From the NCBI RefSeq assembly GCF_016026235.1, contig NZ_CP065613.1: a stretch of DNA of 64,000 bases; one strand, written 5' to 3'. The notes beneath the pieces were generated by a model. The model was given only the letters and a program-made list of their open reading frames with translations, was not told the DNA's origin and made no database searches. The position numbers were made by a program, and so were the translations under genes. Shown piece after piece: positions 41,662-43,186 of the stretch (position 1 is its first letter; the number at the start of each line of letters is the position of its first letter). Source of the stretch: Escherichia coli (GTDB lineage Bacteria; Pseudomonadota; Gammaproteobacteria; Enterobacterales; Enterobacteriaceae).

Positions 41662-41975
41662 ATCGAAAAGACGGAACGGCTTAGCTCAAACATCAAAAGC
41701 AAAATGGGAGAAATTTATGGTTGTCCACCAGAGTTGCTGATATGCCCTTCCTGGATGACGGCTGAACATAAATGAATAGATTCGTGAATAGATACTTGAA
41801 TGTATTTTATTTTTTATCCATATGAAAAATAATAGTAAATCTATAAATCAGTTGCTATTGATGAATAGATACTAAAAAGCCGGAGCAGTCCCCTGAGGAA
41901 TCCCCAGAAAACAAGACAGGCATAGTGAGATGTGATCTAATTGATTGTGCTAACAATTTCAAGGAGATCACCACT

Positions 41976-42221
41976 ATGCCTGCACGTTCATTATGCCAAA
42001 ATTTCCTTAACAACATACTGGCCCCTTTGCATCTTTACCGTCAAAAATCACTGATTGACGCAACTAATGCTGTAATAAATGGCGCTTCCCTCACACTTAC
42101 CAGTATCGGGCGTCATTTAACCGGTACGGCATCAGTTAAAAACAAAATAAAGCGGGTGGATCGACTGTTGGGGAATCGACATTTGCAAAATGAGGTTTCC
42201 ACCATTTTTCAGCGAATTACC
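41976..42221 (+). pseudogene. Truncated IS10-like transposase (first ~82 codons)
   Basis: Identical N-terminus MPARSLCQNFLNNILAPLHLYRQKSL... up to QRIT, then interrupted by the IS1 end. Confidence 0.8.
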
Positions 42222-42236
42222 GGTAATGACTCCAAC

Positions 42237-42740
42237 TTATTGATAGTGTTTTATGTTCAGATAATGCCCGATGACTTTGTCATGCAGCTCCACCGATTTT
42301 GAGAACGACAGCGACTTCCGTCCCAGCCGTGCCAGGTGCTGCCTCAGATTCAGGTTATGCCGCTCAATTCGCTGCGTATATCGCTTGCTGATTACGTGCA
42401 GCTTTCCCTTCAGGCGGGATTCATACAGCGGCCAGCCATCCGTCATCCATATCACCACGTCAAAGGGTGACAGCAGGCTCATAAGACGCCCCAGCGTCGC
42501 CATAGTGCGTTCACCGAATACGTGCGCAACAACCGTCTTCCGGAGACTGTCATACGCGTAAAACAGCCAGCGCTGGCGCGATTTAGCCCCGACATAGCCC
42601 CACTGTTCGTCCATTTCCGCGCAGACGATGACGTCACTGCCCGGCTGTATGCGCGAGGTTACCGACTGCGGCCTGAGTTTTTTAAGTGACGTAAAATCGT
42701 GTTGAGGCCAACGCCCATAATGCGGGCAGTTGCCCGGCAT
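42237..42740 (-). CDS. insB: IS1 InsB reading frame (expressed as InsAB' by frameshifting)
   Basis: 167-aa frame ...[110 protein letters not shown]. Confidence 0.9.
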
Positions 42741-42934
42741 CCAACGCCATTCATGGCCATATCAATGATTTTCTGGTGCGTACCGGGTTGAGAAGCGGTG
42801 TAAGTGAACTGCAGTTGCCATGTTTTACGGCAGTGAGAGCAGAGATAGCGCTGATGTCCGGCGGTGCTTTTGCCGTTACGCACCACCCCGTCAGTAGCTG
42901 AACAGGAGGGACAGCTGATAGAAACAGAAGCCAC
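42659..42934 (-). CDS. insA: IS1 InsA
   Basis: [43 protein letters not shown]...; 91 aa. Confidence 0.92.
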
Positions 42935-43186
42935 TGGAGCACCTCAAAAACACCATCATACACTAAATCAGTAAGTTGGCAGCATCACCCTCGTTATTAA
43001 AACTGGCGGAGAATGTGATTCGACATTCTCCACTCATACTAAACACACTGTCACTTGACGCAGGGCTGAAAGTTCTACAGCAACGGTATACCAATATGAT
43101 AATGGTTTACTAAATTTTCTGGGGATCCCTCAGGAGCAGTCCCCCACTCCGGCTTAACACGACAATCGCCTTTCAGCGAAACACAA

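Follow-up and report, generated by a model that had tools for sequence, protein, structure and literature searches.

An ISEc60 copy in the deoD terminator hairpin of an Escherichia coli genome carries IS1 in place of 821 bp of its interior

Within the window, by which we mean the whole 64,000-nucleotide stretch of Escherichia coli contig NZ_CP065613.1 that was analysed, positions 41893-43133 (1241 bp) hold a copy of the insertion sequence ISEc60 whose middle has been exchanged for IS1, so that ISEc60 nt 1-329 are followed by a complete 768-bp IS1 and then by ISEc60 nt 1151-1294. This structure (hereafter copy 2, as opposed to the intact copy 1 elsewhere in the window) is best explained by a simple insertion of ISEc60, followed by an IS1 insertion and an adjacent deletion inside ISEc60, a reading to which we assign a probability of roughly 0.62. 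Both elements are catalogued. Textbook examples exist of nested insertions as well as of IS1-linked deletions, and the kind of event is already known; what is new here is only this instance and the preservation of its ancestral state in a sister genome, E. coli FDAARGOS_943. The case is one of ordinary insertion-sequence decay with little significance beyond annotation, where copy 2 should be entered as a disrupted element rather than as a transposase gene. With the intact ancestral state surviving in FDAARGOS_943, one step in the decay of an insertion sequence can here be dated, within an E. coli lineage rich in such elements.

Structure of the Disrupted ISEc60 Copy

Comparison of copy 2 with the reverse complement of copy 1 (6418-7711) by BLASTN returned two matches. 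The left arm of copy 2 (41893-42221) corresponds to element nt 1-329, with 328/329 positions identical to copy 1 (99.7%, E = 4e-176), and the right arm (42990-43133) corresponds to element nt 1151-1294, with 144/144 positions identical (E = 6e-75). Absent from copy 2 are ISEc60 nt 330-1150, that is, 821 bp lying at copy-1 coordinates 6562-7382, and BLASTN detected no match to this segment elsewhere in copy 2 or, copy 1 aside, elsewhere in the window. The features that make up the locus, together with copy 1, are as follows.

6418-7711, minus strand: copy 1, intact ISEc60 of 1294 bp, with a 10-bp target duplication (GAGTGATCCC) in the dnaJ terminator hairpin
41883-41892, unstranded: left target duplication of copy 2, GAGCAGTCCC, 10 bp, within the deoD terminator hairpin
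41893-42221, plus strand: ISEc60 left arm, nt 1-329, with the left inverted repeat CTGAGGAATCCCCAGAAAA and transposase codons 1-82
41976-42302, plus strand: chimeric 108-aa open reading frame, 82 aa of the ISEc60 transposase N-terminus and 26 aa from the IS1 end
42222-42989, minus strand: complete 768-bp IS1 (IS1A type), with 100% identical copies in many E. coli genomes
42237-42740, minus strand: InsB' frame, within IS1
42659-42934, minus strand: InsA, 91 aa, within IS1
42990-43133, plus strand: ISEc60 right arm, nt 1151-1294, with the last ~40 transposase codons and the right inverted repeat
43134-43143, unstranded: right target duplication of copy 2, GAGCAGTCCC, 10 bp, a perfect repeat of the left one
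43187-43906, minus strand: deoD, purine-nucleoside phosphorylase, whose terminator hairpin is split by the insertion

At present, the left ISEc60/IS1 junction reads TTCAGCGAATTACC followed by GGTAATGACTCC, and the right IS1/ISEc60 junction reads GGCAGCATCACC followed by CTCGTTATTAAAAC. Both breakpoints are unambiguous, since the bases on each side differ between IS1 and intact ISEc60. The original prediction had placed copy 2 at 41893-43133 and the missing interior at the equivalent of 6562-7382, and the alignment confirms both to the base. It had also stated that copy 2 keeps both termini and its target duplication, which is borne out by the two BLASTN arms and the GAGCAGTCCC repeats, and that the interior has been replaced by IS1, which agrees with the 768 bp at 42222-42989 that are 100% identical to annotated IS1A.

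Identity of the Host Element

The host element, previously described as IS10-like, can be identified from its sequence as the catalogued ISEc60, a member of the IS4 family. Over its 1294 bp, copy 1 shows 99.9% identity to annotated ISEc60 elements of the EIEC strain CFSAN029787 and of other strains, and its 396-aa transposase is 100% identical (tblastn) to an annotated ISEc60-family region on the CFSAN029787 plasmid NZ_CP011417.1. The same transposase matches the Pfam domain DDE_Tnp_1 (PF01609) at aa 98-302 (E = 1.8e-20) and has a Y(2)R(3)E(6)K motif (YSRRMQIEQNFRDEK) at aa 282. Copy 2 differs from annotated ISEc60 in that nt 330-1150 are missing and IS1 stands in their place. Between copy 1 and its orthologue in FDAARGOS_943, there are two differences, at window positions 7590 and 7185 (nt 122 and 527), both falling on the third base of a codon. 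The first, AAC to AAT at nt 122, leaves the amino acid unchanged and occurs in window copy 1 alone; the second, at nt 527, is presumed to be synonymous as well, and window copy 1 still encodes the consensus transposase. The left-arm SNP at nt 122 was considered as a shared derived marker and dropped, C being the consensus allele and T the allele private to window copy 1.

ISEc60 resembles IS10/Tn10 in its IS10-type ends, its DDE_Tnp_1 domain, and its Y(2)R(3)E(6)K motif. The IS10-type end CTGA..ATCCCC is present, and 12 of 13 positions are common to the terminal motif of ISEc60 (CTGAGGRATCCCC) and that of an IS10A-family element (CTGAAGRATCCCC); the ISEc60 inverted repeats match each other at 18 of 19 positions, and both ends are kept in copy 2. 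By contrast, ISEc60 has 1294 bp versus ~1329 bp for IS10, and the two differ in their target duplications. IS10 generates a 9-bp duplication at a NGCTNAGCN consensus, whereas ISEc60 lacks this 9-bp NGCTNAGCN duplication and instead has a duplication of 10 bp, with the form RGG-N4-5-CCC in G-run/C-run palindromes (G/C-run hairpins), in 6/6 insertions (both window copies and loci L007-L010). At the protein level, the nearest named relative is ISSfl1 (52% amino acid identity) rather than IS10, since identity falls to 36% for both ISVsa5 and IS10A (for IS10A, over 93% of the length). The label “IS10-like” therefore holds for the ends and the family, but not for the length of the duplication (10 bp), and the transposase is at 36% to IS10A versus 52% to ISSfl1.

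The Inserted IS1

The segment at 42222-42989 has the features expected of the IS1 family: a size of ~768 bp, imperfect inverted repeats of ~23 bp (18/23 positions match), and insA and insB' joined by an A6C frameshift motif (TTAAAAAAC, at ~42685), with an InsAB' product of 232 aa when the -1 frameshift is modelled. Gene calls at locus L003 include the Pfam domains InsA, HTH_Tnp_IS1, and DDE_Tnp_IS1. The IS1 genes, on the minus strand, run in the opposite direction to the ISEc60 transposase gene. As far as sequence can tell, the ISEc60 shell carries a live IS1.

The 9-bp flanks of IS1 differ from each other (CGAATTACC at 42213-42221 versus CTCGTTATT at 42990-42998), and no target duplication of any length from 7 to 14 bp was found around 42222-42989, in line with the original prediction that IS1 has none. 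Of the two segments that had been named as the places to look for it, 42213-42221 was correct, and 42989-42997 was one base off, the proper segment being 42990-42998. Without such a repeat, the junctions as they now stand do not represent a simple insertion; the assignment to IS1 itself is unaffected.

Target Site and Target Preference

When the element and one of its repeats are removed, the sequence AAGCCGGAGTGGGGGACTGCTCCGGCTTTTT is obtained, ~45 nt downstream of the deoD stop codon. RNA folding of this reconstructed site gives a hairpin with a 12-bp stem and a 4-nt loop followed by a U-run (-21.1 kcal/mol, z -4.07), and the point at which ISEc60 inserted falls in the loop and the 3' arm. 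The empty site is present and uninterrupted, with one SNP, in E. coli CEA106S. The hairpin was not flagged in a simple terminator scan of the CEA106S empty site, and we call it terminator-like because of its RNA fold and its position. That the element had inserted into the deoD terminator, as originally proposed, is supported by the fold of AAGCCGGAGTGGGGGACTGCTCCGGCTTTTT and by the empty site in CEA106S. The same CEA106S locus contains an independent IS1 (1516-2213 of that locus) in the lplA-deoD intergenic region; it adjoins remnants of a helix-turn-helix pseudogene that are also found in the window upstream of 41893.

Judging from the insertion sites, terminator hairpins with a G-run and a C-run seem to be the target of ISEc60, which duplicates 10 bp there. 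Both window copies lie within hairpins that resemble intrinsic terminators, at the ends of deoD and of the dnaKJ operon, and the duplication of copy 1 is found at 6408-6417 and 7712-7721. Such targeting would explain the placement of ISEc60 and could affect transcription termination at deoD and dnaKJ. In its choice of target, ISEc60 is closer to IS186, another IS4-family element with its duplication inside G-run/C-run palindromes, than to IS10. In E. coli K-12 MG1655, IS186A (15387-16731 of the locus compared) occupies the dnaJ terminator hairpin GGCGGGGATCACTCCCCGCC, only a few bases from the position of ISEc60 copy 1. IS186A and ISEc60, two different members of the IS4 family, thus arrived independently at a single target, the dnaJ hairpin. 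The resemblance is in the target only, as the inverted repeats of IS186 (with ends beginning TCCCATAAGCGC) are unrelated to those of ISEc60, and IS186 is absent among the protein matches listed for the ISEc60 transposase.

Order of Events and Comparison with FDAARGOS_943

A search with the left flank together with the left arm recovered the same junction in one complete E. coli genome, that of FDAARGOS_943. At the identical deoD site and with the identical 10-bp duplication, FDAARGOS_943 possesses an intact ISEc60 of 1294 bp with a full transposase gene, and copy 2 matches this FDAARGOS_943 deoD copy at every position of both arms (100%). The two genomes are closely related in this region: window positions 4289-42221 are collinear with FDAARGOS_943 and 99.95% identical to it, with 19 differences in 37.9 kb, and the copy-1 insertion is also common to both. 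Because FDAARGOS_943 has an intact copy at the same site and with the same duplication, ISEc60 must have arrived intact in the common ancestor. The comparison indicates that the entry of IS1 and the loss of 821 bp arose in place, in the lineage of the window, after the ISEc60 insertion. The intact FDAARGOS_943 copy thus independently supports the order that had been given in the original prediction, with a simple insertion first and IS1 and the deletion later. Over 8.3 kb, the window is also 100% identical to the NCBI assembly GCA_900449985.1 (contig UGFA01000002.1).

Differences between the window and FDAARGOS_943 were also noted at two other places. At window positions 60706-61464, which comprise the 5' end of yjjQ and its upstream region, FDAARGOS_943 has, instead of this ~0.76 kb, an IS1-family variant of 768 bp that shares 91% identity with the IS1 of the window and is flanked by AATAATGTT and TGCTTCATG, with no duplication. 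This second, independent replacement suggests that IS1-linked local deletions recur in this lineage. At the other end, collinearity is lost over window positions 1-4288, where FDAARGOS_943 carries nhaR and nhaA; the window has instead a LacI-type regulator gene (862-1893, minus strand) and PTS IIA, IIB, and IIC genes (2164-4179). The breakpoint of collinearity coincides with the left edge of a copy of ISSso6 (IS110 family, transposase at 4371-5546), which suggests that the rearrangement at 1-4288 was mediated by ISSso6.

Route to the 821-bp Deletion

The earlier description of the locus as consistent with an IS1-mediated adjacent deletion is correct. Recombination between two IS1 copies, or a one-step insertion with deletion, would nevertheless give the same end product. 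IS1 is the classical adjacent-deletion element, known for deletions in the gal region and for intramolecular replicative transposition. By the route of adjacent deletion, a simple insertion of IS1 would have come first, at the site of one of the two junctions seen today, and one IS1 end would then have attacked a second site in the same molecule, at a distance of 821 bp (intramolecular transposition). The resulting adjacent deletion would excise the intervening DNA together with one copy of the 9-bp duplication, so that IS1 would stay in place with no flanking repeats. An insertion intermediate at the left site, with its 9-bp duplication, would be expected to show the extra junction GCAGCATCACC followed by CGAATTACCCAAAAGATT, and an intermediate at the right site, with its duplication, the extra junction GAGTCATCTCGTTATT followed by GGTAATGACTCC.

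The locus agrees with this route in that the insertion sequence is retained, contiguous DNA has been lost on one side, no duplication is present, and the ancestral state is known. A complete IS1 at the edge of a deletion without a 9-bp duplication is the textbook signature of IS1 adjacent deletions; the present case is short (821 bp), confined to another insertion sequence, and known from the product alone, but it is of the same kind. We favor adjacent deletion because it takes two events only, because IS1 is classical for it, and because there are precedents in the LTEE as well as the parallel in FDAARGOS_943. In the LTEE, 14/14 events that combined an insertion sequence with a deletion were, on the evidence of earlier time points, insertions followed by adjacent deletions (PMC11708052).

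Searches for relatives of the structure covered 5,426 complete E. coli genomes, among which there was no place where either ISEc60 arm is contiguous with IS1. An intermediate with IS1 and its duplication in this ISEc60 copy was found neither in these genomes nor in exact-protein look-ups, and the predicted 365-aa product of a right-site IS1 intermediate had no record in the exact-protein look-up. The lack of intermediates is attributed to sparse sampling, as two genomes of the lineage have been seen. IS1 matches in E. coli B strains (H4-H25) that reach 30 bp into the right arm were set aside as chance similarity of AT-rich flanks with no shared junction. The literature on ISEc60 and on both strain accessions held nothing relevant to this locus.

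An unlikely alternative in our estimation, which would nonetheless produce exactly the observed structure, is that two IS1 copies inserted in the same orientation, one after nt 329 and the other after nt 1150-1159, and that RecA-type homologous recombination then deleted one IS1 along with the 821 bp; the outer flank of each insertion would be left, and so no duplication would be seen. Recombination between IS copies is, along with adjacent deletion, a recognized cause to which missing duplications are attributed (PMC11708052), and IS1 is abundant across the whole E. coli collection, where genomes have a median of 11 matching places and a maximum of 68. However, this sequence of events requires three steps, two of them within 0.8 kb, compared with two steps for adjacent deletion; no ISEc60 with two IS1 copies occurs among the 5,426 complete E. 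coli genomes, and the protein predicted for the right-site intermediate is the one without a record. There is also no sign of mosaicism in IS1, an absence that is uninformative because many IS1A copies have exactly this sequence (100% identity), and the parents may have been identical.

Somewhat less probable again is a single transposition or repair event that both brought in IS1 and removed the 821 bp, with a duplication never having been made. An insertion sequence at the center of a deletion, with no duplication, would fit such an event, as would the clean pre-insertion state in FDAARGOS_943 and the fact that no intermediate is known, and “IS movement with rearrangement” has been proposed for IS5 in E. 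coli C (PMC11708052). The mechanism is nevertheless hypothetical and the proposal is based on IS5, whereas the LTEE cases were all resolved as insertion and then adjacent deletion (PMC11708052). We consider it very improbable that the structure is a misassembly at repeats, or that it was imported into the deoD copy by gene conversion from another ISEc60 copy. Both components are indeed multi-copy repeats, and the structure is known from a single public assembly, GCA_900449985.1; against this, the junctions are precise down to single bases, the arms match the FDAARGOS_943 orthologue with 100% identity, the structure lies inside a 4.56-Mb contig, and the chimeric open reading frame occurs at one place on the one contig read, so that no donor copy is evident. 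An IS1 insertion followed by adjacent deletion thus remains our preferred account of the locus.

Consequences for Copy 2

The deletion removes transposase residues 83-355, that is, the whole DDE core and the YREK motif. Copy 2 is therefore certain to be non-autonomous, as had been proposed, with both ends intact and the catalytic core of its transposase deleted. The chimeric 108-aa open reading frame is called as a gene in GCA_900449985.1, where it has no Pfam match, and its product is very likely non-functional. Because the shell keeps both inverted repeats as well as 329 and 144 bp of subterminal sequence, copy 2 is in principle a substrate for the ISEc60 transposase of other copies. It is plausible, on these features, that it could be mobilized in trans by such copies, for example the one at 6418-7711, whose transposase gene is 35 kb away; up to 38 places match the ISEc60 query in FDAARGOS_943. 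The transposase of IS10 acts strongly preferentially in cis. In the exact-protein look-up, the chimeric open reading frame was found at one place, on a single contig of GCA_900449985.1, and neither this look-up nor the 5,426 complete E. coli genomes yielded further copies of the derivative with new duplications. A far-fetched idea, to which we attach very little weight, is that the shell with its IS1 cargo might be an active non-autonomous composite that is moved in trans into terminator hairpins, or that the 108-aa product might serve as an end-binding inhibitor that damps ISEc60 amid its dozens of copies.

Other Truncated ISEc60 Copies

Truncated copies of ISEc60 are also present on plasmids. 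Several plasmids (H54-H62) carry truncated 3' remnants of ISEc60 of ~350 bp. On plasmid pE700025_154 (2501-3469 of the locus compared), a 3' remnant of ~200 bp directly abuts IS1 at a breakpoint unlike that of the window, and at least one further IS1-truncated ISEc60 therefore exists.
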